From Antedon mediterranea (taxonomy: Eukaryota > Animalia > Echinodermata), in contig NC_092673.1 of assembly GCF_964355755.1 (NCBI RefSeq), positions 14,666,948 to 14,730,947 of the forward strand: a stretch of DNA of 64,000 nucleotides. The letters are read 5' to 3'. Positions 27,396 to 64,000 of the stretch are shown here, one piece after another. Position numbers and translations under genes: made by a program. How positions within the stretch are numbered: position 1 is the first letter of the stretch; each line of letters starts with the position of its first letter. The notes below the pieces were generated by a model. The model had not been told where the DNA came from and made no database searches. It saw only the letters and a program-made list of their open reading frames with translations.

Positions 27396-27575
27396 TGGAT
27401 ACATCCAAAATTGAATTGACACATGAAATAAATAATGTCGTACTGTAGTTTTTGGTATAACAAGTGAGCATCTTCATCTGAGATTTTTAACTAATGTATA
27501 TATTTAATCGCAACAATACTGGTGACAATATGAACAGTAACAAAATAGCTACTGGATTCGTGTAAGTGTATAGAT

Positions 27576-32999: not shown

Positions 33000-33534
33000 A
33001 TAATGTTGGTTAAAGTTTATTTCCGGTACTGTTACATGTTTTTCATGAGATTTTTAACTAATGTATATATTTCATCGAAACAATACTGGCGACAATATGA
33101 ACAGCAACAAAATAGCTACTGGATTCGTGAAACGACCCAGCATAGACGGACGGACGGTGCTACTTACAACTGATTATTTCACGATATTTTACACTACTTG
33201 GATTATATATATTTGATCTGAACTGTTAAAGTTAACAAGGAACTGAAATAAAGGGAAGTGACACATTTTATTACAGAAACCGTTTTTAGACTCGTGTAAC
33301 TAAGACCTCTTACACCTAGGCCCACGGGTAGACAAAAACTGTACCATATAAGGTTTGATCGGCCCATTTCACCGCTGGGACCCTGATCAAAACCACCGCG
33401 TCTTATTGCCCTTGAATTACCCAATCAGTGCGAGGCGTCGTGTGCTTGGCAACAGTATTGTCTATTGTTTCTGTCACAAACAAAATCGTACCATTTCGTT
33501 CATATGCAAATACAAACACAAGTACGATAACGTT

Positions 33535-35145: not shown

Positions 35146-35155
35146 CCAAAGTAAC

Positions 35156-38151: not shown

Positions 38152-38336
38152 CAACACCTTTGTTTATTTAAGTTCTATATACTTGTTCTTATGTAAAAGG
38201 GTCCTACAAGAAAACGAAGCTATAGCTTTTTTATGCAGGATCCCTGTTCTTAGTTGTACTGTAATTATGATGTACTGTAATTGATGACTAAATAAATGTG
38301 GAATAAATGAAATGAAATGAAATGAAGCGTATAGAT

Positions 38337-41300: not shown

Positions 41301-41926
41301 TGAACAGTAATAAAATAGCTACTGGTTTCGTGCAATTGTATAGATGGGGAACTAGCTCAGATGGTAGAGCGCTCGTTTCGCATGTGAGGGGTGCCGGAAT
41401 CAATGCCCGTGTTCTCCAATAATGTTGGTTAAAGTTTGTTATCGGTATCGTTACATTTTTTTGATGAGATTTTAAACTACTGTATATATTTTATCACAGC
41501 AATACTGGTGACAATATGAAGATTAATAACATATCTACTGGTTTCGTGCAATTGTATATATGGGGAACTAGCTCAGATGGTAGAGCGCTCGCTTCGCATG
41601 TGAGAGGTACCGGGATCAATGCCCGGGTTCTTCAATAATGTTGGTTAAAGTTTATTTTCGGTATTGTTACATTTTTTTGCTGAGATTTTTACCTTCTATA
41701 TATATATTTTATCGCAACAATACTGGTGACAATATGAACAGTAATAAAATAGCTACTGGGTTCTTGTAAATTTACATACGGAGAACTAGCTTAGATGGTA
41801 GAGCGCTCACTTAAATAACAAAATAGCTACTGGATTCGTGTAAGTGTATAGATGGGGAACTAGCTGAGATGGTAGGGCGCTCGGTTTGCATGTGAGAGGT
41901 ACCGGGATCAATGCCCGGGTTCTCCA
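38337..41926 (+). tRNA. Tandem tRNA-Ala array, block 3 (17 genes + 1 truncated), continuation of block 2
   Basis: Same unit; truncated copy at ~41780-41812; last gene 41854-41926. Confidence 0.95.
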
Positions 41927-44900: not shown

Positions 44901-45901
44901 GATTGTATAACAATGAGGATTCAAAGTGGAAATGTCTGCCAAACACATATTTTAATAGAATAGGCCCAAAAGACATTATTGATAACATATCATATATTGA
45001 TAAGAAAAATGCTATTTTTAAAGCCATACCCGATTTCTATAAATCTATACTATGTATTTTAGTCAAACTTAATAGTGGTATGACTAAACGTCAATTATGT
45101 TATGATGATATATTGCATCAACAACTCTGGTATAACAAAATGATTTTATACAATGACATGTCAATATTTTTTAGAAACTGGATAAGGTCAGGTGTGCGAA
45201 ATATTAAGGATATTGTAATTGAGAATAGGTTCATTAACGCAAATGAATTACTTGATATGCTTAGGTATAAATCAAACTGGATTGCTGAATGGCAAATTGT
45301 ATTAAACGCAATTCCAAAAGAATGGAAAGAGAAAATCTTTTTAAGGGATAAAAACCAAAAGCACTCAAAAACAACACACGTTCGATGTTTGAATATGAGT
45401 AGCAAACAAATATGTTCTTTCTTTATTAAGGAAAAATGTCTAGAACCATCCAAAAGTAAAACAAAATGGGAAACATATTTTAACATGGAGAACGATTGGT
45501 CTGTAACATGGAAAAGAAAAATTAAAGATATTAAAAATAATAAACTTAAACAGTTGAACATCAAACTATTGCATTGTATAACACCTACCAAAAGAAGGCT
45601 GTTAAAATGGAAAATAAGCAACACAGATACTTGCCTACAATGCAACGTAGTAGAGGATGATGCCCATTTCTTTTATGAATGCACTGAAGTAAAACCCTTA
45701 TGGGAATATATTAACGTTTACACCATGCACAAATTTGGGATCGAGGCAAATTATCGAAACATTGTACTAGGTACAGGAAACAAATATGTAGACCACATGT
45801 TCTCTATTGGATGCTTCTGCGTTTACAAGGCACATACTTTGAAAAATGTAAACAAATGGAACTTGAAAAAACTTGTTTTGTTACTTGTTGTTACCAAGTA
45901 A
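41934..45901 (+). mobile_element. 5'-truncated Tx1/L1-group LINE abutting the tRNA array
   Basis: ORF1 tail (ends ~42149), then ORF2: SLNVRGL, QESH, GGDMN, RLDY, TDH, GPGLWKLN, RSRAKWVEEGEKNSKYF, NWRPITLLN, GIRQGCPLS, LADD, C-terminal CxxC..H..C. Confidence 0.92.
42238..45901 (+). pseudogene. Tx1 ORF2 (APE-RT-zinc finger) with frameshifts near 42815 and 44800
   Basis: ORFs 42238-42819, 42894-44813 and 44780-45901 are consecutive parts of one ORF2. Confidence 0.9.
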
Positions 45902-46078: not shown

Positions 46079-47150
46079 TTAAAATAAAATTGCAATGTCC
46101 AACTTAATATGGTATGCAGCTCCAAAGTTGTTACCTCTCTTCTTCTTAATGCTGTTATCAAGATACTCATCGAATGTAACATGTATTTGTGTAGCATACT
46201 TTGATTGCCTAATGATGTATCTCAAAAAGGTGTCTGCCATGTGATGAAATGATGTATTTGCTGGAAATGAAGGTGGGAGTGACTGTACTACAGCGTGGCC
46301 ATCAAAGATGATTGCATCAGATGAAATTACTTCTATAGATGTTTCTGCTACCAATTCCTCTAATTTGTGCATGAAGTCTGATTTGAGACATGACACAATC
46401 GTGCCTTCCTCAGTAAAGATATTTAATGGAACAGGAGCATTTTCAAACATCATCACTCGCGCTCAAGTGGCACTTGCTTTCTTGAGTTAACTGCCATCAA
46501 CCGAAGATACATAATCTCGCCATCCATTGACACGGTTCTTTTAGAGGTTTTAACCTTGTTTCGCATATCTGCCATAGTTTTAATTTTGGATCTTGAGATA
46601 GCATCATATAGGCTTTTTCGTTCACCTTTCTGATTTCCAAATAGGCGTTCGCTATTAAAAAATGTATTGACCATTGAAGTACCTTTACTTAGTACATTAA
46701 CTAGACTTTCTTGGATTGCTGGGCTTGCAACTGCTCCTGTTGCGATATTAACTAACCTTTCTCTCTGGAGGATCTGAAAAATTAAATGGGTCAATGTAAG
46801 CTCCATCAAACATCTGAACAAGTTTTTGAACGTCATCATTCCTTGACAGTAACCAAATCTTGATTTGGTAACGCCACTCAATCTCAACACCATGTTGTGA
46901 TCTTGATGTCTTAAAGCAGCATTAAATACGGTACCTTAGTGTACATATTTGATTCACCTTTTGAATCAACCACTATCGACCATCCCGGTCGATGTTTGAT
47001 AGAACATCGTTCTCCACATATAAAACAGTAATTAAGCCAATCAAAATTAGCTTCATTGGTTGTTGTTGACCTAGTACAGTACTGCGTAATGTGGCTTCTT
47101 CATTCTCTACAATACGGTTCTTATCATATTCCTTGGATTTGCCTATCTGT
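46079..47150 (-). pseudogene. Academ-like DNA transposon protein fragment (XPG/PIN-like region), degenerate
   Basis: LVNIATGAVAS, E.APVPLNIF.EEG....KS.FMHKLE, IIFDGHAVVQ, IHVTFDEY...SIK motifs; family assignment from motif recall. Confidence 0.55.
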
Positions 47151-47225
47151 ATCCTCGTCAATCTCCTCGTGCTAAACTTGACGGAAGAGGCCTTTTGTCA
47201 CTACAGGGTGAAGTTAGACGAGTCG

Positions 47226-47741
47226 ATGATGAAGAACGTGATGGAGAAGAGCGCGTTCAAGAACATGACGGACAGAAAGAGCCTGATGTACGTAGACCGT
47301 GCCGCCAAAGACGTCTTCCAGACTCTGGATCTGCAAGCGCTCGCGGACAAGAACGGCGGCAGTTTGCCGGAACACACCTGCAAAAACCCTTACCTCCGGC
47401 AGACGTTGTGTAACCCGACGACGGAGGTGGTGGACAGCGATCGACTGAAGTTCAAGCGCAAGGAGCCGAATTTACTCACCGTCGAACGTTCGCACGCACG
47501 ATTGAGAAAAGCGTGGACCCAGATGCTGGCAAACGGGTCCGAGTACGAGATAAGACGAAAGCACGGTCACGATCGTAGCATCTACAATCGAGAAGTCAGG
47601 AAGATGCAGGAACGTATGATCAAGATCGACGAGACTTACGGCTTCTCTCCTCTCATCTACAATACAGGAGAAAAGAAGCTGTGGCCATGCACTTGTTCGT
47701 CGTCTCAGGAGAAAAATATAGAACCCTTTTTGTATCAATGA
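47226..47741 (+). CDS. Hypothetical protein, probably 5'-truncated at the island boundary
   Basis: Open frame from the junction (~47150), island-type codon usage, AATAAA at 47821. Confidence 0.6.
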   Translation: MMKNVMEKSAFKNMTDRKSLMYVDRAAKDVFQTLDLQALADKNGGSLPEHTCKNPYLRQTLCNPTTEVVDSDRLKFKRKEPNLLTVERSHARLRKAWTQMLANGSEYEIRRKHGHDRSIYNREVRKMQERMIKIDETYGFSPLIYNTGEKKLWPCTCSSSQEKNIEPFLYQ

Positions 47742-48104
47742 TGTGTAGCATTTTTTTTTTTTTTTTCTCTTTATTAAATTTGTAATTATTTTCAATGTGG
47801 TACATAATTATATTGATTGCAATAAAATTCGAAATACATAAACTCAAAATACATAAAACAAGTTTGTTTTTTTTTTGTTTTCTTCTTCCATTATCTTTTA
47901 TTTATTTATTTTTGTTGTTGTATATTTTAAATCCACTGTCTATACAGTGGTATACATAAAAAGGGTTGCTTTTAAAGCAAATGAAATAATAACAATAACG
48001 ATTATGACAGGTATACGAAGACAAGGGTGAAGATAACTGTGAAGATGATGATGATGATGATGATTAAAAAAAAATGTATAAATAAATAATTAAAAAAAAA
48101 GGAA

Positions 48105-50180
48105 TCATTCTCTCGGTGTAACGTTGCGTCGGTACGGTGAATTGTCACGTCTGCGTCTTCTCCTTACGGTAGGACCTGCCACCAGAACTTTCCTGTCTTC
48201 GTCGGACAGGAAGTGCTTCTCGTCGTAACCTGCAGTGAAATTTGCGTTCATAAAAAAAACCATTCTTTTCTGCAAAAACACCGTCTTTTCACGGGCGATT
48301 ATACGCTGGATAACGTCCATAGGAAAATACGGCCTGATGTCGGAAGGTTTGATTATTGTGAAACGCACTTCCAACCCCTCGCCGCCGCAACCGTCGTCGT
48401 CGTCATCATCATCATCGTAATCAGCGCCGCCGTGCGAGTACTGCGCAGGCAGTCGCGGCTCGTCGAACGGCCGAGGCAGATGACAGGGAAACGATCTCGA
48501 GGGCGGAAAATCGAATCCGTCTTCTCTGGAATCTTCGTCGGCGTCTGCAAATCGATTGGAAGGGTCGTCTCTTTCGAGAGCTAGCCGTTCTATGACTTTG
48601 ACGCAAGTTCCGTGGGATTGTAACGGACTTCGTACGAATTCCGTTTTCGGGTGGCACTTGAGCAGAGCCCTGGCGCACCGACGAAACAAAGCGAAACAAT
48701 CCGAAGATCGATTCCAGCTCACCGTCCCGTCGTCGTCCCCAGAACCGACCGTGACAACGTTTTCGAAATAAGTGACGCCTCTCTGCGATTCCGTCGGAGG
48801 CAATCGGTCGCTGCCGTCCAAATCTTTCCGATCGGTCGAAGCCAACACGATCGGGTAGGCGGAAAGACGGGTGACGAACCTCTCGTTCTGCTTGCTGGCC
48901 ACTTCGGCCGTAACACCCTCGAAAACGGAGGCGTGCATGTAAGGAATGCTGTGTCTCACGTGCTGTGTTACGCGAACGGATCTGTCGTACGCGTCGAACG
49001 CAGGCCTGAGCGATGCCATCTCGAGGCGTTGTTCTTCCGCGAACGAGAGTCCGACAACCGAAGACCTGAAGCGCACGGTTTTTGGATCGAAGTCGAAACG
49101 GACGAGTCTCGCAAGGTGGGAACCGAAGTTGGCAAGAGCGTACAGCAAATCGGGTTCGTTGCCAACCTCCGGCACCGCGTAAGAAAAGGCGATGGCGGGA
49201 TATGCGAGAGCGAACAGTTTCAAAGCTTCGTTCTGATCGCATCGCGGTCCCAGCGAAACGTGACCTTCGTGTTCCGGATCGGGAAATTGCGGAATCCACT
49301 TTCTGAGGTATTCCACGAAGCATCTTCTCCTGCTACCGTCGTCGATGCGCCTGGAAAGCCCTTCAAGAAAAGGGTCGACCCCTTCGAAAATCTTTCGAAA
49401 CGCTCGTTTTCGTCTCAGATAGAGGGGAGCCACAGACGACAGAAGGTCGATGTCGTCGAGTTCTACAACGTCGTGACCGTTGCGATATCCGTCTTCGCAA
49501 AGACTACGGACGACGGACTCGTAATCTTCGAACAGCAAAAGCCTTTTGCCGATCTCTTTGTAGAGGGTGACTCGTGATCTTGGCAGTCGTCGCAACTCCT
49601 GGTCTACGTCGAAACAAGCGCCTTCGACGGCGGCGTGGTTCTGCAGTCCCAAAGTTTTTGCCTCCGAGACGAACGTCTTACTACCCACCCTGTTACCGTC
49701 GTTGAGCACTCGACGAAGAAATTCTGCCACCGTCTCCTCGACTTTACGCGACGATGCGGCATCGCTTCGTCTTGCTTCGTTCAGGTAACTGTGCAACTTG
49801 GCAATTTCGAATGAATACGGAGTGCGCCGTCCGCTTGCGAACGATGCCGTCTCCCAAAGCAGAACGCCGAAAAGACTCAATCGCCCGTACGGTACGTGGC
49901 GACCCAGGAAGCTACGTGCTTTCGCCACAACGTAAGACGGAGATTCCGACAGCCAGTTGTACTGGTCGATTCTTTTGCTTTCCATGTGGAACCAGAAAGC
50001 TCTGGACTTGGCCAGGAGCAGTTTGTCGTCTACGTCGTAGTCGTCGTCGTCGTTCGGACGAGGGCGGGCGTCGCTTAGAAACGAAAGCAGTCGTTGCACT
50101 CTCGACGAATTTTTCACACCGGCCGACTTGAGGAGCTCAAACGACAACGCCAACAGGGCGACGTTCGGATCCGTCGTCAT
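48105..50180 (-). CDS. Hypothetical protein, 691 aa
   Basis: Long uninterrupted ORF ending at an AT-rich spacer; acidic tracts and basic C-terminus; no family recognised. Confidence 0.75.
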   Translation of the reverse strand: MTTDPNVALLALSFELLKSAGVKNSSRVQRLLSFLSDARPRPNDDDDYDVDDKLLLAKSRAFWFHMESKRIDQYNWLSESPSYVVAKARSFLGRHVPYGRLSLFGVLLWETASFASGRRTPYSFEIAKLHSYLNEARRSDAASSRKVEETVAEFLRRVLNDGNRVGSKTFVSEAKTLGLQNHAAVEGACFDVDQELRRLPRSRVTLYKEIGKRLLLFEDYESVVRSLCEDGYRNGHDVVELDDIDLLSSVAPLYLRRKRAFRKIFEGVDPFLEGLSRRIDDGSRRRCFVEYLRKWIPQFPDPEHEGHVSLGPRCDQNEALKLFALAYPAIAFSYAVPEVGNEPDLLYALANFGSHLARLVRFDFDPKTVRFRSSVVGLSFAEEQRLEMASLRPAFDAYDRSVRVTQHVRHSIPYMHASVFEGVTAEVASKQNERFVTRLSAYPIVLASTDRKDLDGSDRLPPTESQRGVTYFENVVTVGSGDDDGTVSWNRSSDCFALFRRCARALLKCHPKTEFVRSPLQSHGTCVKVIERLALERDDPSNRFADADEDSREDGFDFPPSRSFPCHLPRPFDEPRLPAQYSHGGADYDDDDDDDDGCGGEGLEVRFTIIKPSDIRPYFPMDVIQRIIAREKTVFLQKRMVFFMNANFTAGYDEKHFLSDEDRKVLVAGPTVRRRRRRDNSPYRRNVTPRE

Positions 50181-50839
50181 CGATCGGTGTGTCTGAAGTT
50201 TTCCGGCGCGATCGCATACGTGGCCTTTGCGACCGTCGCATCGTCTCGACTTTCTTCTACGCCGGTGGTACGTTTAACTTTGTGGTCGACGAAGACCGAC
50301 CGCAAAGTTTCCGCGACCGAAGCCGTCGATGGCCCCGTCGCATTCGGACCCGCCTCCGTCGTCGCCGCGGCAGTCGTTTTTGTCGGTTTCCGTCGTTTTT
50401 GCGAGAGGTCAACCTGCAGCGAAAGTTCGGGATCGGACCTGTTGAAAGTGTAACCGTCGTCGACGAAGTCGACCGTGTCCGAGCTCTCGTCGTAAGTCAT
50501 GCCTGTTTCGAAAAACATTCCGACTTCGTCTGGCCACTCGTACACGCGGGCCAGAGCCAAATTCGAATTACGATTGCGACTCGGTGCGACTGTGACTCCG
50601 TGTTCACCGAGAGGGTGAGGAGTAAACTTTCCAAAAACCACTTTCCATCCAGGTTTTCCGCTCATTTCTAATTTCATAGTGTCAGGAGTAACATCTAATG
50701 TGGGAAGCGGTGGACTCCAATCATCGTTCGTAGAGAAACGTTCAAGGATAACCCATTTACGTTCCGCCACAAGAGCTTCGTAAAGCGATTTGGGACTTTT
50801 CCTCGCCGAAACGTCTTGCCACCTGTAAATTCGGGACAT
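50177..50839 (-). CDS. Hypothetical protein, ~220 aa
   Basis: ATG at 50839 (MSRIYRWQ); stop overlaps the next start as ATGA at 50177-50180. Confidence 0.65.
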   Translation of the reverse strand: MSRIYRWQDVSARKSPKSLYEALVAERKWVILERFSTNDDWSPPLPTLDVTPDTMKLEMSGKPGWKVVFGKFTPHPLGEHGVTVAPSRNRNSNLALARVYEWPDEVGMFFETGMTYDESSDTVDFVDDGYTFNRSDPELSLQVDLSQKRRKPTKTTAAATTEAGPNATGPSTASVAETLRSVFVDHKVKRTTGVEESRDDATVAKATYAIAPENFRHTDR

Positions 50840-52556
50840 GGCTGCGGTTGAACCTACCGCCGCCGCACCTGGTGGCGTCGACGACACGTCGACGCAAATA
50901 ACCACGATACTTTTCGACAAGATGGACGAATCCGTCAGCAGATACGGGGCCTTCCGAGTGGACAAGAAGGGACGCTTCGGAAACGTCAAGTCCAGCAAGG
51001 AAGATGTGCGAGTGGTGAAAAAGACTTTGCTCCACTCGAATTCCGCCGGCGACACAAAGAAGCCTGATCCGACCGGCAACAAGGAGGCGATGATACTCGC
51101 TCACGCCAAGACGGTCGCCAACAACCGAAAGTACATGCCGCTTCTTATCGACGTGACGTTCCTGAAAGGCACGATACTTTCCATCAAGATGAGCAACGAA
51201 GGATGCGATCTGGAAACGTTGCGTTACGTGCACTGCATCGTCCCTTGTGTGACTTTGTTGACGTCAAACATTTGCGAAGCCGTCGTTTTTCTGAACAAGA
51301 TCGGCATCGTTCACAACAACATTACGCCGAGGAACGTGACGTACAACAGAACGGAACATCACTTCAAGCTCGTAGCCTTCGATTCAGCCGAGTTCGCCAA
51401 ATTGGGAGCGACCGAGCTCGGAATTGCAGTCGATACGAAGAAAGGCCATCGTGCCATCGGAAAAGTTCGAGCCGGTTCTTTTGCGTGGAAGTACGTTCCG
51501 GAGGGAACTCTCGTCTGCTTGTCGGACGTTCGTCCCATGTACTCCTGCGTCAGGAGTCGATCGAAGTTGTCGAAAGTTCCTTACAGGGACATAAGTCACG
51601 TCATGTCGGACAGGCCGTCGAAAATGCTCAACAGATTTTCGGACGTGTTCGGTGCAACGATGACCGTGGCCACGACGCTGTCCGAAGACAATCGATCGGT
51701 TTCGTCTTTGCCTCAGTTGGAATACTACGACGTTAATTGCGAGAGAGGCAGAGAGAGAGAGGGGGGCGACAACGACAAGATCGAGGACCTTGTCAAAATT
51801 TGCAGGCACCTGGTCGACACGAGAGGCCCGACGAGCGACGTCGAACTTTCGTTTTGGCGTAACTACATCAACCCGAACTCCGCGCTGAGCCGTGCGTTGC
51901 AAAGACCTCCGAAAACCAAGGCGTTTTTGGACAAATTTGAAAACATTTTGGGCGCTCAGTTGGTCGGCGCCTTGAAACAATGTTTGAGTCCCATGCCCGA
52001 ACACCGACGGTTTAGGGATCTGTGAGAAGTGGTGGGACAGAAGGGTAACTCTCAACCGAAACCGAGGAAAGTGGACTTGAAGAAACTGTCGGTGAAACGC
52101 GTTTCCGAAAAAACGGTCTACCTGTCGTACGACGCAGAAATCATTGTAGGCGGCATCAAGTTCGGCAACGAAAGCAAAAACGGGAACGTCGTGGTCGTGG
52201 AACACGTTTTTTCCATGATCGACGACAGACACGTGTATGCTTCGTTCGCAATGACGGCGATCAGGTTGTGCCAGTACATCAAAGCAAGAATCATGGACAT
52301 TCCGCTGTACAACGAGGACGAGCGGAGACGTCTGTCCGAAGTTTTCGGATCTTCCGCAACAAGGACTCCAGACGGGAAACGAATGCTGGTCACCGTTGAC
52401 GATGATGCCCAACTGTTGTCGTCGATTAAGGCGTACAAAAAAAAAACGGCAACAAAATCTCGATCGAAAACAGACGGTTTACTTGGCGAAACGGTCCCTG
52501 GCGGCGAACCGAAGCGAGCGCACTTGCAGTCGCCTCTGGCTGAAGAAAATTCATGA
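50838..52556 (+). CDS. Divergent Ser/Thr kinase-like protein 1 (likely pseudokinase), with in-frame TGA at 52023-52025
   Basis: GRFGNV, VVKK, HNNITPRN, LVAFDSA; ORF 52029-52556 is in the same frame and aligns with the C-terminal domain of kinase 2. Confidence 0.8.
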
Positions 52557-52601
52557 CAAACATTTTTTTATCTTCATTTCTTTCTAATTTCAAAAACAAC
52601 C

Positions 52602-54704
52602 ATGTCAAAGAATAAAAATAATAAGAAAAAAAGAAAAAATAAAACGAAAAAGCAACACGCTGAAAATGCATACGAATCATTTCCATGTTCTTTGTCGTCG
52701 TCGTCGTCGTCGTTGCCGCTACCCGACAAGATGTCGTCTCCGTTCGTGTTACCGTCTCCGAATCCCACGTCCCCGAATCCCATGTCCAGTTACGTAGCTC
52801 GGTTGGCATCTTACAAGAATTGGCCCATCCAGAACGCCGTATCATCGATCTCCTTGGCCCAATCCGGATTTTACTACACCGGCACGGATGACAGCGTCAA
52901 GTGCTTCTCCTGCACGAGCGGTCTTAAAAGATGGCAGGCAGGGGACGTCGCAGACGTCGTGCACGGAAAATTTTCTCCCACCTGCGAATTTTTGTCGCAG
53001 AAACTCGCGGAAGCAAACCGTAGCAGCACGGGCAGCAACGATGCCGTCGTGAAGAATAAAACAAAAAAGCAAAACGCTGAAAACGCACACGAACCATTTC
53101 CACGTTCTTCGACGTCGTCGCTACCCGACAAGATGTCGTCTCCGTCCGTGTTACCGTCTCCGCCTCCCACGTCCCCGCCTCCCATGTCCAGTTACGTTGC
53201 TCGGTTGGCATCTTACAAGAATTGGCCCATCCAGAACGTTGTGTCGTCGATCTCTTTGGCTCGTTCCGGATTTTACTACACCGGCACGGATGACCACGTC
53301 AAATGCTTCTCCTGCACGGGCGGTCTTAAAGGCTGGGAGGAAGGGGACGTCGCAGACGTCGAGCACGGAAAGTTCTACCGGACCTGCGAATTTTTGTCGC
53401 AGAAACGCAAGGAAGCAAACCGCAGCAGCACGATGCCGTCGTGACTCGGGTGGAGATCGCCAGCATGTCGTCATTGTGGAGCAGATTGGCAACCTACAAA
53501 AACTGGCCGGCAAAAAAAAAACGGCGTCGCGCCTTATAGTGCCATGGCTCGCTCCGGATTCTACTACACCGGAGTCGGCGACTGCGTTGAATGCTTCTGT
53601 TGCCGCGGTCAACTGAAAGGATTGAAATCTGGAGATAACGTGGAACAAGAACACGAGAGACTTTACCCGCACTGCGGCTACTTGCCGTCACGTCGCAACG
53701 CCTACCGGGTCGACGACGGCACCACGAACAAACAAACGTCGTCGTCGTCGTCGTCGTCGGTTCTAAAAATTTGCTACCCTAAATTCGCCGACTTGCACGA
53801 AAGACGACGGACATTTGCACGCTGGAAGATCCCTGCGGCAGGCAGAATTGCAGAAGCCGGGTTCTTCGCGATCGACGTCGAGGCGGGTCGTGCAGCGTGC
53901 TACAACTGTGCCGTCGTGCTGGACTTCCGGTCGACCGATGAAAGATGCGACCCGTTGTTCGAGCATGCAAGATTTTATCCGTTTTGCGACCTGTTGATTC
54001 AGACTAAAGGTACCGCCTACGTAGAGTACGTCAGAAATGCGACGGAGAGAGCGGTCGAGAAGAAATGTGACGTAAAGCCCGTTCCCGAGTTGTTTGAAGC
54101 ACTTTCGCTGCACGTCTCCTCCGAAGGCGCAAACAAAGTTCACTCGAGTGGTCTCTGCAAAATAGATGGGTGGAAAGAGAAGGAAAAAGAAGAAGATGAA
54201 GAAGAAGAAGAAGAGAAGAAAAAAGGAGACGTATGGAAAAACAAGACAACGTCTGCCATCACCGTCGCCTGTCTATTGGAAGAGGAGATGAAACGTAAAC
54301 CCATCCAGCAGGTCGTAGAGATGGGCTACACCATCGACACCGTGGAAAACGTTGTGCTGCAAAAATTGAAAGAAGGCAAACATTTCGATTCTGTCGTGCA
54401 GTTGTTCGACGCCGTGACGACCCAACTCGCTCAGAAAGAGGACGGCGAAAAAAGTGCGGAGGTAGTGGCAAAGCCGCCTGCCCACGCTTCCGACTCGAAA
54501 GATAAGAGCATCGTCGATTTACGTTCTAAGGTGACGCAACTTCTAGACCAACGTCTTTGCAAGGTGTGCATGGAACAGGATTCGAACGTTTGTTTTCTTC
54601 CCTGCGGTCACATTTCAGCCTGCGAATCTTGCGGCCGACAGCTTTCAGAGTGTCCGATCTGCAGAGGCGTTATCGACACACAAAAGAAAGTCTTTCTGGC
54701 TTGA
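52602..54704 (+). CDS. iap: Inhibitor of apoptosis (4 BIR + UBA-like + RING), split by indels near 53430 and 53515
   Basis: Four RL.S/TY..WP..A..GF..C..C..H..C repeats; PIQQVVEMGY UBA-like; LCKVCM..FLPCGH..C..C..CPICR RING; no introns. Confidence 0.92.
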
Positions 54705-54842
54705 ATCGAACAAAGAAACAGGATCGCCTCTTCTCTGCTTTTCGCCGTCGTTTGAAACGTATTAGCATTTTACAACACACGCGGAAGGGATTCAGTCGTT
54801 CATTCGTCTTCGGTGCTGGGAGGAAGCACAGTTCAAAAACCG

Positions 54843-54863
54843 CACACACACACACACACACAC
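54843..54863. repeat. (CA)n microsatellite
   Basis: About 10 CA units. Confidence 0.9.
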
Positions 54864-54886
54864 TCGAAAGGGTGAGGAAAAGCAAC

Positions 54887-57166
54887 ATGCAGTCAACCGA
54901 TCGTCAAACGAGATACGACGACGATTACCAACGGTACAAAATCGACCAGACAAGACGACACGTCGACGATCGAACGCCTCGAGAACACGATCGTCGAAGA
55001 AGAAGACACGTCGACGATTGAACGCGCCCCGAACACGATCGGAGAAGACGACACGGCGACCACGACGTTAAAAAGACGGAACACGATAGGCGAAGGTCGC
55101 TCCAGAACGAAAATCAGATAACAAGCCGCAGCAAAGGCAAAGCTCGGAGGACCGACGATCGTCGACGGGAACGCGACGGCAAAAATTGGACGGAGGAAGA
55201 ATGGCGAATGACATCCGGTCGACGCGGAGACGGTTCTACCGAGGAACGGCCAAAAAAAAAACTCGACGCGGGTGCGGCGACCACGAAGCGGACCCTGGAG
55301 AAGCGACGCACGTCGTCACATCCGACGACCGATTACGTCAGGCCCTCCAAGGAGTTCAAAACGTCGAACGTGCCGTCTCCTCTTCTCGTGTCGTCTCCTC
55401 TTCTTATGCCCCCTCCTCCGGTTCCGAAACCGAGGGCCGCCGCCGCCGACAGACAAAACGACATCGTAAAGACGATAAGTTACGCAAAATTGCCAAACGA
55501 ACCCTCCAGACGAGGCTTGTTCTTGGTGAACGACAAAGGCACGTTCGGGCAGGTCAAGTCTGTCGAAACCGAAGCGTCCTTGGTCGAAAAGAGACGTTTC
55601 AAAACATTCGATCTGCTCGACAGGCGTCAGAGCCTCACTTTCAACAAAGAGACAATGATTTTGGCGTACGCAAACGACAAGGTCTGCAACTCCAAACGGT
55701 ACGTGCCGACCATAACTCAAGCCACCATCGCAGACGGAGTGGTGCAGACCATACGCACGACGAACGAAGGGTGCGACTTGTTCACGCTGAGATTCAAGTT
55801 CGGCTTGCTGCCGTCCGTCAGAAGACTGTACAACCACATGAACGCTGGCATCAATCACCTGAGGAACATCGGAATAATGCACAACGACATAACGACGAAG
55901 AACGTGACGTACAACAGAGTCAAAGATCTGTACGTCCTGATAGATTTAGGTTCGGCCGAGTTCTGCGAGAGGAACGTCGAATCGCTGGGAATAGAATTGA
56001 CGGAAAAAGATTCCAAAAGTTTCGGAGGGATCGGAAAAGTTCGAAAAGGCTCCGCCGTTTCAAAGTACATTCCGCCCGACACCGAGATCTACATCATGGA
56101 CGCGGACCCTAAAATGGGCAGCGTAAGAAGTCCTTACAAACTCGTGACGACGTCTTCCAGAGACGTGAGCCACGTCATGACGGACAGGCCGATCAAGATG
56201 TTGTCGCCCAAGTCCGATCTCTACTCGGCTGCGATAACCGTGGCGGCCATGCTCGACACCGAAGCTGTGCGGCCGTTGAGGAACGTCGACTATTCGGACA
56301 TGCTCGTCGTGAACGCGGTCGGCGGCGACCATCTCGAACTTCGTGATGCGGCCGAGAAGAAAGTGCACATAATGCAGGTTCTTCTTGGCGCTTGTCGGCA
56401 GCTGGTGGAACTGAGAGGCGGCATGACGGAACAGGAGGCGACGTTCTGGTACACGTACATCAACTCGGATCCGAGGATCTGCAAAGCTCTCTCCTCGAAG
56501 CCGTCCGATCCCGTTTCCTTGTTGGATCGGTTCCGGAACGTGCTCGGCGAACGGTTCACGAACCGGCTGAGGAACAACCTGAACCCGATTCCGGAGAAGA
56601 GAAAGTTTTACGTCGATGACGTCGTCTACAAAGTCGATCAGAGGACCAGAGTCGAGTCGTTTGACAGTTTGGCGGTGGTGTTTTCCGCAAAAAACCTTGT
56701 TCACTTACTCTACAGAGAAGAGGGCATCGTGGTGGGAGACTTGAAAGTTCGACAGTTGCAGAACGAAAAAGGACAAGCGACGAAAATCGCCTTCGTCGAT
56801 CACGTGGAGCTCATGGTCGACGCACCCGATCTGCCGATGTCGTTCCTCGCATCGGCGCTCTATCTGCTGTCGTTATTCGCAGAAACGGTCGTGTTTGCCA
56901 CGTACAACGACCGGGAACGTCAGTCTCTGGCCTCCATGTTTTCGGAACATCGACGCACTTCCAACGGAGACGTGCTGGTGAAGGTGGACAACAGCATCCG
57001 GAGGATCCAGGTTCTGAAAAAAGGTGTGAAAAAACCATCCCGATTGCAACAGACGGCGAGGAAAAATACGATCCGTGCCATCTTTCAGGAAGTGTTAAAA
57101 CCGGAGGTGCGCCCGATTTCGCCCATACACTCGCCCCGGAAAGTAAAGGGCCCGGAACAATCATGA
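54887..57166 (+). CDS. Divergent Ser/Thr kinase 2 with R/D-rich N-terminal extension; in-frame TGA at 55019-55021
   Basis: GTFGQV, HNDITTKN, LIDLGSA, SDLYS; frame is open from ATG 54887 to 57166 except for one TGA. Confidence 0.85.
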
Positions 57167-57930
57167 CGTACACAACCGTTCAATCCAGTTGCAACAGAGC
57201 GTCGATGAACTTCTTCCTGGTGAACGTGGTGTCTTCGCAAAACATCGCGCATCGATATCCGTACGACACGCGCGAGACGGCGCAATCCATCCACATGAGA
57301 GGCACGAAATTGCAAGACGACATGATAGAATTTCAATCGCCTCTGAAAAGAGGATCGACCGCGCTGTATTTCGTTTCCACAGGATCGACGAACATCACGA
57401 CGAGGGGTAACTTCAACGTGAGAACGAAAACTTCGCTCAACTACCAACTGCAACAGGCGATAACTTGGAGAAAGTACAAGAGCGTACCTATGCACATTTC
57501 GACAAACAACCTGAACCATGCAGGTAGGATGTACGGCGTGCTGGACGATCCGTCTGATGTCGTCGAACGTCTTAAGCTTTTGGAATCTTTGACGGTCGAC
57601 AGCAACGATCTGTTTCCGTCGGTCAAGTTCACCATCCCGTACCACGTGGACGGACGAACGAGAAAGTTCCAGTTGTTTTCTCTTTCTCTTTGCTGCAACA
57701 CTCAGTTTCAGGCGGTCGCTTCTCTCAAGCAAACCGGTCGCACGTTCCTCGACATGATATTAAGGCACGTCGACAAATTCGATTCAGAACTGTCCCGAAA
57801 GTGCATTGCAGAGGAGCTGGATTGTGGCGAACCGTTGAACGATCGAAGGCTGCTGGAGATAAGTCCGTCGAACCGTCCGATCTGCTGCAAAAGGTCCGGT
57901 TGCAAACGCAAACGGTACGTCACAAAGTGA
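57163..57930 (+). CDS. Hypothetical protein, 255 aa
   Basis: Start overlaps kinase 2 stop (ATGA); basic Cys-rich C-terminus CCKRSGCKRKRY. Confidence 0.7.
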   Translation: MTYTTVQSSCNRASMNFFLVNVVSSQNIAHRYPYDTRETAQSIHMRGTKLQDDMIEFQSPLKRGSTALYFVSTGSTNITTRGNFNVRTKTSLNYQLQQAITWRKYKSVPMHISTNNLNHAGRMYGVLDDPSDVVERLKLLESLTVDSNDLFPSVKFTIPYHVDGRTRKFQLFSLSLCCNTQFQAVASLKQTGRTFLDMILRHVDKFDSELSRKCIAEELDCGEPLNDRRLLEISPSNRPICCKRSGCKRKRYVTK

Positions 57931-57972
57931 AAAACTTTTGTGTTTTTTTGTTTTTTGTTTTTTGTTGTTGTA

Positions 57973-58206
57973 ATGTCAGACTCTCCCGAAGAGTACTTAC
58001 CTGTGAAAAACATTAAGATCCAGAAATTGGACTTTAGAAACTCTTCTTTGTACATGAGAAGACGACCGATCAAGGTATTTCAGAACGTTGGAAATGTCGC
58101 TGAACCTGTCCAGAAGAAAGATTATTTTACAAGTAATAACGGACTAAGGAATCATACCGAAAAAGCTGGCGATTCTTTCCCGACGGAGAAAAACGACTCG
58201 AAATAG
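57973..58206 (+). CDS. Small hypothetical protein
   Basis: 77-aa ORF bounded by T-rich and A-rich spacers. Confidence 0.4.
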   Translation: MSDSPEEYLPVKNIKIQKLDFRNSSLYMRRRPIKVFQNVGNVAEPVQKKDYFTSNNGLRNHTEKAGDSFPTEKNDSK

Positions 58207-58371
58207 ACAGGGGCAAAAAAAAAAAAACATTTTAGAAAAACAACTATAACTGATTAAATAGTAAACATTTTACAGTATATTAATACAGAAATAGACTTGC
58301 AAGAAAAGAATAATATTTACAAAATTCACAGAAAAAAAGAAAAGAAAGGGGAAAAAAAAAACAACACAAGA

Positions 58372-58596
58372 ATGAGCACAAACATATACATTGAAATGCC
58401 GGTCTTCCACATGGAAAGGGTTCTGAAAGTGCTACGCCTTAAAAAAAAGCAACACAGCGGCAACGACGGCGATGCGGATGAAAAAAACAAAAAAGACTTG
58501 TGCGAAGTGATCGACAAAATAGAGAGATTGATAGATTGCAAAGCAGAAAGTGAAAATACTTTATCTTCTAAATTTAAGAAAATGATGGTCGTTTGA
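58372..58596 (+). CDS. Small hypothetical protein
   Basis: 74-aa ORF after an A-rich leader, AATAAA directly after the stop. Confidence 0.45.
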   Translation: MSTNIYIEMPVFHMERVLKVLRLKKKQHSGNDGDADEKNKKDLCEVIDKIERLIDCKAESENTLSSKFKKMMVV

Positions 58597-58692
58597 AATA
58601 AAAGGAAATTGAAATTTATATACATATATGTGTTTTTTATTTTTTTTCTTTTGTTGTTGTTGTTGTTGTTATGTTTCACAAGAATCTTTCTT

Positions 58693-59883
58693 ATGGACTT
58701 GTTCAAAGAGAGACCTGTGTTGAAGTTGGGATTGCCTCAACCTGCCGTGCAGGTCAGGTGGTCAAAGATAATGACAGTCGACCCTAGACATTTCAAGTCG
58801 TACGACTACGACGACTACGACGACGACGGCAGCGGCGGTGACAAGGGCAACGATTACGGAAGGCGTTATCTGACCGGTCGTCTCTGGTTGACCAGAATCA
58901 AAGATTACACAGACTACACGACGCTTTCCCGAACTCTGCAGTCTCTGGACAATTGGAGCGTGTTTGTGAGAAGCGGCAACCCCTCTCCAACGTTCCAGTG
59001 GTACTTCGACGGAAGGCGTTACGGATCCGACAACCCTTACTTCGAGCTTCTGATGAGAATATTGAGGCATCTGTGTCTGTCGTACAACAGATCGCTACCG
59101 TTGTGTCCGAAGAACGTCGCTTGCGCAGTCGAAACCTGCCTCGACAATTTGGCCAAGACGGAAGGTGGCGTAGGCAGAAGCGGCGTGCATTTGGGCCCGC
59201 CTCCGATGTTCGTCGGGCACGACAGACGACAGATCGGATGGCTTAACGCAGACTTCTTCTCTGCCCTTTTAACCCTGGAAACCTCGCAACGACTGATGGT
59301 AGGTCTGGCCGATAGATCTTCCCGTCTCGTTTTCGAAGGATTGCAAACGACAGAAAGCATCCTGAATTTCGAGTTGGCGGAAGTGGAATTCTTCGAATTT
59401 GTCGAGGACGTCGTGGAAGACGCAACGAACCCGTTGAGAGACTGGTGGGCGTACGGAAAATATTTCAATTCCGTCTCGGCCAAATTCGTCCGTCCTCTGA
59501 GGTTACTCACCGAGGTCAAAGAAAGACACACCGCTTTCACGACGGACTCGGACGTGTTCCTGCCAAGCGTTTGGAAACGGTTGAGAGCGACCGGGACCAC
59601 GTTGCCTTCTTGCATAACCGAATCGACCGTGTTGCACGAAACGGACAGGAAATGCAAGGAAAAGGTGATTTCGCTTTTTCTAGGAGAACACCTAGAGCCT
59701 GTCGAAGACGATCTCGCCGTAGACGAAAACAAGATAAGAAGGGAGAGGTTGAAACGATGCATGAACGACGAGATCGACGAACGACCACCCAAATTTCTCG
59801 ATTCGCCGTTTGTTTCAGGGAATCTACTGCTCGGCGTAAAAGATCTGGACGTGACCGTGATTTGCGGATGCGCAATACTTTGA
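58693..59883 (+). CDS. Hypothetical protein, ~396 aa
   Basis: ATG 58693 (MDLFKERP); GC-rich ORF exactly filling the gap between two AT-rich spacers. Confidence 0.75.
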   Translation: MDLFKERPVLKLGLPQPAVQVRWSKIMTVDPRHFKSYDYDDYDDDGSGGDKGNDYGRRYLTGRLWLTRIKDYTDYTTLSRTLQSLDNWSVFVRSGNPSPTFQWYFDGRRYGSDNPYFELLMRILRHLCLSYNRSLPLCPKNVACAVETCLDNLAKTEGGVGRSGVHLGPPPMFVGHDRRQIGWLNADFFSALLTLETSQRLMVGLADRSSRLVFEGLQTTESILNFELAEVEFFEFVEDVVEDATNPLRDWWAYGKYFNSVSAKFVRPLRLLTEVKERHTAFTTDSDVFLPSVWKRLRATGTTLPSCITESTVLHETDRKCKEKVISLFLGEHLEPVEDDLAVDENKIRRERLKRCMNDEIDERPPKFLDSPFVSGNLLLGVKDLDVTVICGCAIL

Positions 59884-60055
59884 CAAATTGACAAACAAAA
59901 GAATACAAAAAAAAACTGTTAAACAATATTTTTGGTTTTTTGTGTTTTTATTTCCTTCGACCATTTATTTATTTATTTTTTTTTCTTCTTCTTCTTTCGA
60001 AAGTAGACTTAAAACTATTTTTTTATTTATTTATTTTTTTTTTGGGGGGATTATT

Positions 60056-62161
60056 TTACGCTTCATCTTTTGCTGTGTAGTTCCATGCCTTTCCGCAGAA
60101 TCGGTGTGCGTCGCAACACAAAGCGTTTGTACATCTTACGATGAATAATCTCCTCTCCCCGTTTTCGGGATCTACGCTTCGAAAGACCGGTTCGTTTTTT
60201 CTAACCTGTCGCTCTTCTTCGGCGGTCGACACCTTCACCGTGGAACAGCAACTGCCACTGAACAAATTCCACCCTCCGCAGAGCTGCAGCTCCTTCCGGG
60301 GCAGGTGCGTCGGAATCTTTTCCAAAGTATCTTTGATCTCCTTCAACCGATGCAATATGCTCGTTCGGCAGTCCCCTGCTTCCGCGTTCCAAATGATTAC
60401 GCTCAAAACGTTGCTCTTGTCGAGTTGGCAAAATTTTTTCAGCTCTCGGATCAAGTGCTCGACTTCCACAGTCGGATGGATGCACGAATGCGACAGCGGA
60501 TGATAGAAAACGCCTCCGTGTTTCAGGTGGTAAGGCGTCTGTCTGTAGCATCCGAGGGCGGCGCAAATCTTTTTGAATCTGTGAGAGTTCGTCTCATGTT
60601 TGCCCTTTCGAACGACGTCCCGGACCTCGATCGCTTCGTCGTCCTTCAGTTCGTCGACGACTCGACAAAATTCTTTTACGCAACAGTCTACCGCCGTATT
60701 GCTGTCTCCGATCCTCAGGGCTATGTCGATCATGACCTGTTCCAGTCGAGACACGAATCTTTCGACGCCGGGCCTCGTCATCCCTGTGGTGCTCACCCTC
60801 CCGTCGGCATGGAGACACGCATACCTGTTCTTCTTGTCCGTCAGCAGCAAGCCGCGAAGCGTCTCCCTGTGTTTGAACCTTTGAAAGCTTCCTTCGCCCA
60901 AGACTCGGGTGAATTGCTCTTCCAGCTCCTGTCTCCCGCCTGGAACTATGTCCAAAAACAGCGAGTCGGTGTCGCCGTACAGCACCCGAGCACCGTTTTC
61001 TTCGGCGCAATTTTTTAGCGCGTTCAGTTGTTCCCTGCACTTTTCCGTCACGTGGTTGTAAAGGCTTTTCTTGCCAGACGTGCACAGACATCCGACGCAT
61101 GCATTGGCCGCTTGTTTGTACGCGGCGGAGTTCTGGGGAGTGATGTTTTTTCCTTCTCTGGCCGACACCAGTCTTTTCATGACGGACGGAAGCAGACCTT
61201 CTCGTACTTCGGCGTCGACGAAAGAGCCGTCTTCGAGAGCCGTCGACTCGTCCACGTTTTTGTCGATGATGAACCTCGGATAGCAAGACTGAAAGTCGTA
61301 CACGTCGACGTCTCTGTGAATGCCGGACACGGTGTCCAGCACCAGGCCACCTCTGCACGTTTCGTCTTCGTTGACGCTTCCTTTGGGCTTCGGGTCCGCA
61401 TTGCTCCTCGGAAACACCACACGCTGACGCTGCGCTTCTCTGCACAGCACCGACGAAAGGACGCCGGTCGACGATCCGTTGGAGAACTTTCCCACTATTC
61501 TGGACAAGTTCGTCTCGATTTCGACCAATTTTTTCGCTTCCACCTCCGACACGTAGCGTTCCAGCACGCAAACGTCGTCGTCTAGCTTTTTCGCCGACAA
61601 GCTCGCCGCTAGCTCGTGACAAGATTCGTAACCGACGTAATCGTAGACGGAGTCGTTGTCGCCGCCCGCCGGCGACCGTACGTGTTTCGAAGTGTCCAAG
61701 CACACGGGGAACCCGTCAACGGCAAGGGTTACCTCGCACACCCGACATCTGGCGACGATGCTGTCCTTGACCCGACCACCGTGATACACGAACACGTCGG
61801 CAGATTCGATCGACTTTGCGATTTCCGACAGCGTGTCGATCTCTGCATTTTCGCCGTGCAGTCTCTTTCCGTCGGACAGCATCGCCGAAATTATTTGACC
61901 GTTCACGTCCCACCTGAGAACTACGCACAACACCGACAGTCGCACCGGGTGAACGTTCTGTCGTTCCAAGTGGATCTGCTCGTCGTACGTCAAGCTTTCG
62001 ACGTTGCCGTCTTCGTCTTCGGAGTAACTGTGCCAAGCGCATCCGTGAACCCCGACCGCGCACTGAGCGTCCAGGTCGCCCACGGACGAGGGGAGGTTGC
62101 CGAAGAGGTTGTCGACCTTGATGCCGTTCCTTTCGTCGGTCGTGAGCCTCCTGTACTTCTT
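60056..62161 (-). CDS. polB: Family B DNA polymerase, compact and divergent (5' end probably on another exon)
   Basis: GGLVLD..YDFQSCYP (motif A), KQAANACVGCL (motif B), VLYGDTDSLF (motif C), LLLTDKKNRY; frame open from 62161 with no ATG at its start. Confidence 0.92.
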   Translation of the reverse strand, partial: KKYRRLTTDERNGIKVDNLFGNLPSSVGDLDAQCAVGVHGCAWHSYSEDEDGNVESLTYDEQIHLERQNVHPVRLSVLCVVLRWDVNGQIISAMLSDGKRLHGENAEIDTLSEIAKSIESADVFVYHGGRVKDSIVARCRVCEVTLAVDGFPVCLDTSKHVRSPAGGDNDSVYDYVGYESCHELAASLSAKKLDDDVCVLERYVSEVEAKKLVEIETNLSRIVGKFSNGSSTGVLSSVLCREAQRQRVVFPRSNADPKPKGSVNEDETCRGGLVLDTVSGIHRDVDVYDFQSCYPRFIIDKNVDESTALEDGSFVDAEVREGLLPSVMKRLVSAREGKNITPQNSAAYKQAANACVGCLCTSGKKSLYNHVTEKCREQLNALKNCAEENGARVLYGDTDSLFLDIVPGGRQELEEQFTRVLGEGSFQRFKHRETLRGLLLTDKKNRYACLHADGRVSTTGMTRPGVERFVSRLEQVMIDIALRIGDSNTAVDCCVKEFCRVVDELKDDEAIEVRDVVRKGKHETNSHRFKKICAALGCYRQTPYHLKHGGVFYHPLSHSCIHPTVEVEHLIRELKKFCQLDKSNVLSVIIWNAEAGDCRTSILHRLKEIKDTLEKIPTHLPRKELQLCGGWNLFSGSCCSTVKVSTAEEERQVRKNEPVFRSVDPENGERRLFIVRCTNALCCDAHRFCGKAWNYTAKDEA

Positions 62162-62342
62162 CTATACCAAAACATGATAACAAAAAAAAAAAAAAAAAAA
62201 AAAATGTATAATATGCGAGGAAAGCACGAACAACGCTGGACCTTCCTCAAGTTGGTTACGTTCTCTCAACCCCACGGCATTATATAGTAGGATTTAAATC
62301 TGTAGAATGTATAGAGTCTGGCCGAATAACAAGCATCCAAGA

Positions 62343-63710
62343 ATGGCAGGAGGACTACAAAAAAAACGAGCGAAACGTTGCAGAAAAACGAACGAAGCGA
62401 CGAAGATCGATCGTTGCCGTTTGTTTGAACTGCCAACCGAATTGCTGCTGCACATTTTCTCGTTCTTGGACAACACGTCGAAGTTACAGTTCGCCGATTC
62501 GAGTCCCTTCCTGGAGAAACTGTCGGGCGACTTGGAAATCGCCGCCACCGAGGCGACCGTCGAATTGTGCACACGTGAACGTGGTGGTGCGGCGGACGAG
62601 TTTTCTATCTACCGACCCGGAAACGTGAAGATGTGCGTTCACCGAAAGTTCAAACCGTTTCTCGAACTGCCTCAGATCTCGCTGCAGTTTCACTTGGCCA
62701 ACCTTGTGCTGAAGAACGTGCATTTTAGAAAGGGGACATTGCGTCGCATCTTGGAAGGGATTGTTGTTAACTTAGAGTATTTGGAATTGGACTCGTGCAC
62801 CGGCGACGTTTTCCACCCTTCCCCCGAACAACTCGTCCCGGAAGACGGCATACGATATTCGTCGATACATTTGAAAAACATGAACGTGCACTTGGACGAC
62901 GTTCTTGAAACCCTGCTTCCGGATGAGCGTGTCACCCAATACACCTTCTACGTGGTACTGACCGACTGCAAAGTGACGGAGAAAGATCACGAACAGAACG
63001 GTGTGCTGTTTATTACGTACGACGGACGCAGCCACCCGTCCGATGTCGGTCGTTACTTCAACCTTACCGCGGTCTCGTCCGTGTGGAAAGAAACCGAGCG
63101 GTTGAAGGTTCGCCCCTACAAAGCGGGAGGAAGAGACACGGTGTGCATGCACCGTGTCAACTTGATCAGTTTTCAGGCGGCCGTAGACCATTTCGCCGAA
63201 TCCTCGAACGAAACCTCCCTAGAACTTTCGTTCGACAGCTGCCTTGAGGAACGATTCGGCATGCTCGTGGGTATGCGGTTGGTGTGCTGGGAATCTTTGA
63301 CGACGTTGTTTCTGATATATTCGGTGGCGGAGGAAGACTTTCTTGGCGTTGTCATGTCGCACCACACGAACATAAACTCGATAACGTAAAAAAGTTCCTG
63401 CGGCGATCCTTTCGGCGAGGTGGACACGCATCCCAACACGGCACTGAGGCAATTGAACCTGATCGATATGGTCGTCGACGAGGCCGGCATGGTCAAATTC
63501 ATGACACCGTTCGTCGACGTCGTCAGGTTAAATTTAGAAATGTGCGTGTTCGACGAACGTCTTTTCGCAAAACTATTGCACGAGGCATCCGGCTATGGTT
63601 GGTTCGACTGCGAGTACGTCCGCGAGCCAGGCATGTTGGAACCCGTTGAGATGTTTCTTGAAACGGTCAAAGAAACCGATTTATTATGCAAAAAAATTAA
63701 AATAAAATGA
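62343..63710 (+). CDS. F-box protein with LRR-like region; in-frame TAA at 63387-63389
   Basis: LFELPTELLLHIFSFLD F-box; NLEYLELDSC-type repeats; ORF 63420-63710 continues in the same frame. Confidence 0.8.
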
Positions 63711-63874
63711 AAAACATATGTTTATAATGAATATTATTACGAGAAATGTAATCGGACCAAAAAAAAAAAAGAAATATAAAATAAAAACAAAATATTCTGT
63801 AATCAGTGATATTTATTCAAGAAAACAATTAATAAAAGAAAAAAGAAAAACCAAATGCATTCTATAAATTTTTG

Positions 63875-64000
63875 TCAATCATGATGACTTTGAAATATTA
63901 CAAATGTCTTCGTTTCATCGTCTTTGTCAGCTTCTTCACTCTTCTTTAGAAGGAACCTTTCGGAAATTCGAATGTCGTCCGGAATGTTAGATGGTGTGAA
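63875..64000 (-). CDS. 3' end of a further island gene, truncated by the window
   Basis: Open 41-codon frame FTPSNIPDDIRISERFLLKK...HHD* ending at an AT-rich convergent spacer. Confidence 0.45.
   Translation of the reverse strand, partial: FTPSNIPDDIRISERFLLKKSEEADKDDETKTFVIFQSHHD

Follow-up and report, generated by a model that had tools for sequence, protein, structure and literature searches.

A compact family B DNA polymerase gene in a foreign-looking block of the Antedon mediterranea genome

Introduction

The replicative polymerases of large eukaryotic DNA viruses belong to few known clades, most of them proofreading. Nimaviruses encode a family B polymerase (PolB) much larger than the one described here, and in other invertebrate DNA viruses inhibitor-of-apoptosis (IAP), F-box, and kinase-like genes serve roles in preventing cell death and in protein turnover. 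Endogenous nimaviruses commonly carry BIR genes (PMC10871703). The PolB clades used for comparison below follow PMC7544198.

Here we analyze a window of 64,000 nucleotides from the echinoderm Antedon mediterranea (assembly GCF_964355755.1, contig NC_092673.1, positions 14,666,948 to 14,730,947, forward strand), in which a first-pass annotation made from the letters alone had proposed a reduced, Pol alpha-related polymerase within a mobile or viral element. The reading we consider probable is that an undescribed large DNA virus of invertebrates left an integrated and now decaying piece here, that the gene is a 5'-truncated polymerase gene of that piece, and that its intact enzyme would copy the viral genome. 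Features of the window are collected in Table 1.

Table 1 Features of the window, with positions counted from its first letter.
Feature	Position	Strand	Basis
GC- and CpG-rich block, ~90% coding, with spacers of A/T runs; continues beyond the right end of the window	47152–64000
C-terminal remnant (~190 codons) of a giant AAA+/MCM-like predicted helicase; left edge of the block	47152–47741	+
691-aa ORF, no family match	48105–50180	-
220-aa ORF, no family match; its start codon and that of kinase-like gene 1 overlap	50177–50839	-
Kinase-like gene 1; stop at 52023–52025 in the window copy	50838–52556	+
IAP with two BIR domains and a 402-bp internal repeat	52602–53444	+
IAP with BIR domains and RING; frameshift near 53512 in the window copy	53466–54704	+
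Kinase-like gene 2, 652 aa, 40% identical to gene 1	55208–57166	+
255-aa ORF, no family match	57163–57930	+
396-aa ORF, convergent with the polymerase, no family or ESM Atlas match	58693–59883	+
Family B DNA polymerase, 701 codons, 5' end missing	60056–62161	-	motifs, Pfam, structure model, alignment
Polymerase C-terminal cysteine motif (C638, C639, C677, C682, C683, C689); predicted metal site	60095–60250	-
Site where ~450 bases of the X6 contig are missing from the window copy; polymerase start lost	62162–62215		contig comparison
F-box-like gene, 360 aa (F-box-like E 2.5e-4, below the Pfam cut-off)	62307–63389	+

Motifs and fold of the polymerase

The five motifs quoted in the first-pass annotation are all present, and all within a single minus-strand frame that is open from stop to stop. 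GGLVLD occupies residues 271–276, motif A is represented by Asp289, motif B by K349-N353-G357 with Val356 at the tyrosine position, and motif C by Asp397 and Asp399, with both catalytic aspartates intact. The frame matches Pfam DNA_pol_B at an E-value of 3.6e-14, far above chance. The Pfam scan of this protein returned neither an exonuclease nor a protein-primed family. The best matches among solved structures were an archaeal PolB (5mdn, 3e-10) and yeast Pol alpha (2.5e-8), and the ESM Atlas places the protein among generic PolB clusters.

A structure model built from a 91-sequence alignment reached a pLDDT of 71, and a single-sequence fold reached 33. The model matched KOD polymerase with a Z score of 23.3 and an rmsd of 4.4 over 510 aligned residues, and it superposes on PolB structures over residues ~20 to 615, indicating that the exonuclease domain is kept as a fold that lacks its catalytic motifs. 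The first-pass remark that clear exonuclease motifs are missing thus holds for the motifs, throughout the family, but not for the domain itself. Structure scores fail to separate the candidate PolB groups, with alpha structures only ~1 Z below the best (22.1 versus 23.3). The C-terminal cysteine region was poorly modeled, and in hhalign comparisons its motif matched neither the alpha zinc domain (1%) nor the delta zinc domain, the profile of the latter comprising three sequences only. Motifs and modeled fold are those of a nucleic-acid-primed family B polymerase, from a real and unusual family whose intact members are predicted to be active.

A family of related polymerases

One close relative was found among 7993 candidates, a protein of 738 aa (P0001) that is 45% identical over 98% of the length, and a profile search of 1.84 billion representatives yielded two strong and two distant matches with the same traits. 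Family members include a cluster (P0058) of five proteins from the crinoid Anneissia japonica, annotated as delta-like or Pol II-like and in one case located on a 128-kb scaffold, along with P0059, P0062 (on a 39.8-kb contig), and P0069 (on a 37.9-kb contig). Members align end to end and the relatives measure 738–841 aa, so the ~700 aa first given for the protein is accurate for the frame and understates the natural length, the 5' end being cut. P0062 and P0069 carry the N- and C-terminal traits of the family, and the cysteine motif is common to the four members that read to the end (the window polymerase, P0001, P0062, and P0069). Profiles of the N- and C-terminal parts pick only family members among 289 proteins; since the profiles were built from members, this indicates only that no other match shares those parts.

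All five family members in the tree alignment keep the catalytic residues. Val or Ile stands at the motif-B tyrosine position in these five; among the other rows, odd ones aside, the residue is Tyr in 60 of 61 and Phe in one. The fingers span 24–27 residues in the family, compared with 29 in Pol II; almost every alpha, delta, archaeal, or viral row has at least 39. None of the members tested has an exonuclease Pfam match, and neither the protein-primed family PF03175 nor TPR inserts were found in the window polymerase or the relatives tested. Pfam likewise found no alpha N-terminal domain (PF12254) or alpha zinc finger (PF08996) in the window protein, P0001, P0062, P0069, or P0211. The earlier observations that protein-priming inserts are missing, and that the motif-B tyrosine is replaced while the catalytic aspartates remain, are therefore valid for the family as a whole.

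Family-specific scans of IMG/VR returned no relative of the polymerase, the kinases, or the helicase, a result of limited coverage because the polymerase of Panulirus argus virus 1 (PaV1) has no relative there either. Among phage records the only matches, to PolB and MoxR, were weak. A literature search whose coverage omits most subscription papers and supplements found no description of this polymerase family.

Other compact polymerases came to light in these searches. A 707-aa short-finger PolB (P0195, P0290–P0295) lies on six Logan contigs of 22.2–22.3 kb, which may be complete genomes of a small virus whose polymerase is nucleic-acid-primed. P0137 and P0205 are compact PolBs that also have a replaced motif-B tyrosine and short fingers and are possibly distant kin; the C-terminus of P0137 bears a weak delta-type zinc motif.

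Phylogenetic position and the Pol alpha question

A mixture-model tree was computed from 47 of 72 rows and 374 columns, after P0137, P0205, P0195, P0271, P0105, P0090, and 19 other rows were dropped to limit long-branch pull. In this tree, which was built without pox, asfar, baculo, nudi, nima, malacoherpes, alloherpes, mirusvirus, zeta, and epsilon sequences, and in which we assigned the viral and most delta labels from motifs, the family forms one clade (100/99) and alpha forms another that does not contain it (100/99). The neighbor of the family in this tree is Pol II, at weak support (69/84). Under LG+G4 it joins the long-branch short-finger PolBs P0137, P0205, P0195, P0271, and P0105 (support 86–92). 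Approximately unbiased (AU) tests rejected grouping of the family with animal alpha (p 8.75e-5) and with the irido-like rows and PaV1 (p 0.017), and did not reject grouping with all alpha (p 0.31), with the delta/viral clade (p 0.28), or with the herpes-labeled rows (p 0.14). Descent from animal POLA1 is thus rejected, and a position as sister to alpha or to delta/viral polymerases is compatible with the tests. On the evidence at hand, the family appears to be a separate clade outside the known viral clades, and its derivation from alpha is unsupported; firm nesting in a known viral clade, raised at the outset as a possible outcome, was not what the 47-row tree recovered.

Motifs first taken to indicate alpha proved of uneven value. 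GGLVLD had been called an alpha signature, but GGLVL occurs in 48 of 58 alpha-labeled matches and also in 89 of 219 others, mostly archaeal B3 and Pol II, and in none of 45 viral rows. The GCL ending of motif B occurs in 54 of 58 alpha-labeled matches versus 1 of 219 others, a contrast that is partly circular because the alpha labels are partly motif-based. Compared with group profiles in hhalign, the N-terminal half of the protein scored 93% with archaeal B3, 88% with delta/viral, 8% with Pol II, and 4% with alpha. The family does not contain the ExoII 'GWN' motif that PMC7544198 gives for the Pol II-like clade.

Capture of an early Pol alpha by a virus or element, followed by reduction, is an ancestry compatible with both a viral and a transposon nature of the element, and we regard it as unlikely. 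It would be consistent with the AU result for all alpha, with the GCL ending, with the small deficit of the alpha structures, and with the exonuclease of Pol alpha, which is likewise inactive (PMC7544198), such inactivation being easily convergent. The best tree nonetheless places the family beside Pol II, if weakly; the N-terminal half resembles B3 rather than alpha; the alpha N-terminal and zinc-finger domains are absent from P0001, P0062, P0069, and P0211; the fingers are of nearly Pol II length, against 39–45 residues in 18 of 19 alphas; and distant members have GGM and GAL in place of GCL. The description 'alpha-related' could accordingly not be upheld, given a family outside the alpha clade and an alpha zinc domain that scores 1%.

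Could the polymerase instead belong, as a highly diverged member, to an already known group of viruses outside the tree, such as nimaviruses, nudiviruses or other Naldaviricetes, malacoherpesviruses, or mirusviruses? BIR genes, a kinase, and an AAA ATPase belong to endogenous nimavirus gene sets (PMC10871703), the groupings with herpes-labeled rows and with the delta/viral clade were not rejected, and the top rows among viral structures in BFVD come from a hytrosavirus, a baculovirus, and Carcinus maenas virus 1. Yet those full-length matches are only 10–18% identical and none stands out, all 16 delta/viral rows have the motif-B tyrosine and fingers of at least 39 residues, the grouping with irido-like rows and PaV1 was rejected, and the polymerase's neighbors have no Pfam viral family match. 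We consider such membership rather unlikely.

The block and its gene content

Toward its right end the window changes character. The block that contains the polymerase has a GC content of 43–54% and a CpG observed/expected ratio of 1.42–1.55, compared with 30–45% and 0.56–1.21 in the first 48 kb, and 15 hand-picked ORFs cover 90% of positions 47226–63710. On the host side, to the left, the DNA is AT-rich and contains LINEs, a Gypsy element, and tRNA arrays. A 36-Mb NCBI contig is recorded as carrying two of the genes in the block. No homologue of kinase-like gene 2 was present among 7995 candidates.

A scan with the motif-B region led to a second element, L081 (1 of 119 pattern matches), which encodes P0069. 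There the polymerase gene lies head-to-head with a gene for a 1467-aa P-loop (AAA+) protein, and the leftmost ORF of the window's block matches the C-terminal part of that protein (E 8e-21). Since this ORF is the tail of such a gene, the polymerase and the giant AAA+ gene co-occur in two elements. Contigs X1 and X6, from other holders of near-identical DNA, extend 3.4–3.7 kb left of 47152 in a way that the window does not, which is about the length the giant gene needs. The two polymerases are only ~22% identical and no other gene is common to the parts read. Pfam matches of the 1467-aa protein are weak and under the cut-off (AAA_5 1.8e-4, MCM 0.02), phage records gave a MoxR-like match at E 0.3, and no MCM structure matched; we take the protein to be MCM-like from the order of Walker A, Walker B, sensor 1, and arginine finger, read by eye. 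L081 also carries C1q-like genes and a LINE-like fragment and has the same CpG excess as the block. Composition, a dense block bearing IAP genes, and the AAA+ gene shared with L081 support the original placement of the polymerase in a mobile or viral element.

Neither the 17-kb block nor the 16 kb of L081 that were read contains a recognizable capsid, packaging ATPase, integrase, primase, or terminal repeat; for capsid and packaging genes this result is qualified by the fact that most ORFs match nothing and that the ends of the element lie outside the view. With no capsid gene found, a giant transposon without a capsid, copying itself with a nucleic-acid-primed polymerase and its own helicase, remains a rival explanation. 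Such an element is foreseen in PMC6431247, every context observed is chromosomal or includes a LINE-like insertion, Anneissia has several copies, and no virion gene was found in the parts read. The IAP and F-box genes, together with the secreted C1q-like and cysteine-rich proteins of L081, fit an infectious life cycle instead, and the parts read, which do not reach the true ends, contain neither a transposase nor a terminal repeat. We judge the transposon explanation to be quite improbable.

Several further observations concern the layout of these genes. Two divergent genes in the block overlap at their start codons (50837–50840), leaving no room for promoters; the head-to-head polymerase and AAA+ genes of L081 likewise overlap, by 17 bases. 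Beside these replication genes, at 1640–4318 and 13153–15426, L081 has two genes for secreted C1q/TNF-like proteins, a gene for a cysteine-rich protein, and a 757-aa ORF that appears BTB/kelch-like by eye. The kinase-like paralogues (50838–52025 and 55208–57166) have HNN and HND where HRD is expected, and AFD and DLG at the DFG position, and one of them may be a pseudokinase. Positions 62265–62355, before and at the start of the F-box-like gene, match several higher-depth contigs in all four runs compared, and a contig of X1 links the window's right end back to 62298; this stretch is likely a repeated motif or part of an F-box gene family in the element.

Left of the block, three tandem arrays (11029–14434, 27479–33129, and 38329–41813) consist of a ~213-bp unit with tRNA-Ala genes of anticodons AGC, TGC, and CGC; with three tRNA-Val besides, 35 genes were called. 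Two LINEs with endonuclease and reverse transcriptase (33355–38151 and 42238–45901) abut the arrays, the first having an ORF1 with an RNase H1 N-terminal domain, and we presume that they may be of the tRNA-array-targeting Tx1/Dewa type. A Gypsy-type LTR retrotransposon at 4821–8847 encodes a gag-like DUF7041 protein, protease-RT-RNase H, and integrase in three successive frames. Beside the left edge of the block, two minus-strand ORFs (46079–46893) resemble a decayed DNA transposon gene and have no family match.

State of the window copy

The polymerase frame has no ATG near its 5' end, and its first GTG is at 62083. Where the window has 54 letters, the X6 contig (a record of 2759 letters) has 506 and rejoins the window at 62216; contigs X1, X2, and X3 also diverge from the window past 62161, and the N-terminus of P0001 is 61 residues longer than that of the window polymerase. 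Because other holders continue past 62161, we conclude that the window copy lost ~450 bases including the start of the gene. An upstream exon, considered in view of a T-run and TAG at 62162, was rejected: the P0001 N-terminus has no match elsewhere in the window, and other holders show the missing DNA at that very site.

The window copy bears at least four lesions, namely the helicase cut at the left edge, the stop in kinase-like gene 1, the frameshift in the RING-bearing IAP, and the 5' loss of the polymerase, and other holders differ from it at these sites. A separate frameshift, near 60194, affects an X3 contig. Near-identical DNA was recorded in 11 runs from three organisms and five studies, with half the words or more in 6 of the 11; no RNA run is among these holders, X1 being RNA only as a guess. 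For 40 of the 60 copy differences listed, 17 were synonymous and 23 non-synonymous, no significant departure from the expected synonymous share of 0.23–0.35. Such little constraint between copies fits recent endogenous copies, and motifs kept across relatives at 22–47% identity point to long selection in the lineage. The window's own polymerase copy is likely dead.

These copies also bear on whether free virus or the DNA of another organism was misjoined into the assembly. The composition steps sharply at the block edge, none of the contigs listed bridges 47152 to the window's flank, and X1 cover is nearly nil at 46268–46901. On the other hand, the lesions of the window copy lie at sites where other holders differ, X3 has its separate frameshift, and relatives occur in other animal assemblies. 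We regard a misjoin as very improbable. A decaying retrocopy of host POLA1, for which one could cite the lack of evident introns, the cut 5' end, and the A-run beside the cut, is excluded by the AU test against animal alpha, and relatives at 22–47% identity keep the shared derived traits; the A-run lies on the 5' side, where other holders continue.

A probable viral origin and its implications

Returning to an undescribed large DNA virus as the probable source, we hypothesize that the giant MCM-like AAA+ protein, a predicted helicase, would unwind the viral genome, and that the polymerase would extend a nucleic-acid primer, likely without proofreading. As no primase was recognized, the primer would come from a host primase or from an unrecognized gene. 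The IAP, F-box, and kinase-like products would block host cell death and redirect protein turnover.

The tyrosine lost from motif B presumably occupies the same position as Y567 of RB69 polymerase, and loss of this tyrosine lowers fidelity. Catalytic parameters of the RB69 Y567A mutant are reported to be unaffected (PMC3792054), and by this analogy tyrosine loss need not abolish catalysis.

A broader proposal seems to us evenly balanced between true and false: that these genes belong to animal DNA viruses, or to integrating virus-like elements, that constitute a new family or order, reaching at least from crinoids to other invertebrates, and that replicate with their own two-gene module, in which a 1467-aa MCM-like helicase is joined by a PolB that forms its own clade, lacks proofreading, and has lost the otherwise near-invariant tyrosine of motif B. 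If so, a polymerase clade without proofreading or the fidelity tyrosine, accompanied by a giant MCM-like ATPase, would represent an unrecognized animal virus lineage and would offer a natural setting in which to test how an enzyme that is likely error-prone copies a genome of tens of kilobases. Because animal assemblies conceal such genes under labels like 'DNA polymerase delta catalytic subunit-like', a direct survey with the polymerase and the AAA+ gene as markers is possible.

Comparison with known systems

Mininucleoviruses (PaV1 and Carcinus maenas virus 1) are likewise invertebrate viruses with a compact PolB (827–857 aa) and gave weak matches; PaV1 differs from the family in keeping the exonuclease motifs, the tyrosine, and long fingers. 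Teratorn-like endogenous herpesviruses and Polintons/Mavericks are also large integrated elements with their own PolB (PMC6431247). Unlike Polintons and adintovirus, the block has a polymerase that is not protein-primed, and no retroviral-like integrase was found in it; unlike in Teratorn, no herpes capsid, terminase, or piggyBac transposase was found. Endogenous crustacean nimaviruses similarly occur as pieces in invertebrate chromosomes that carry BIR genes, a kinase, an AAA ATPase, and a PolB (PMC10871703), whereas the block contains no recognizable nimavirus core gene or tyrosine recombinase and its relatives include a crinoid.

With POLA1 the family shares look-alikes of GGLVL, GLLP, and GCL, an inactive exonuclease domain, and a cysteine-containing C-terminus; it differs in having about half the length, a position outside the alpha clade, no alpha N-terminal or zinc-finger domain, a lost tyrosine, and fingers ~15 residues shorter. 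The Pol II-like and archaeal B3 polymerases give the best sequence and structure scores (the 5mdn and KOD matches above) and are of similarly compact size, the N-terminal half aligning with B3, the short fingers being shared with Pol II, and the family's weakly supported sister position in the tree being to Pol II. In contrast to both, the family has neither the exonuclease motifs nor the motif-B tyrosine, carries an extra C-terminal cysteine domain, and resides in animal chromosomes beside IAP genes.
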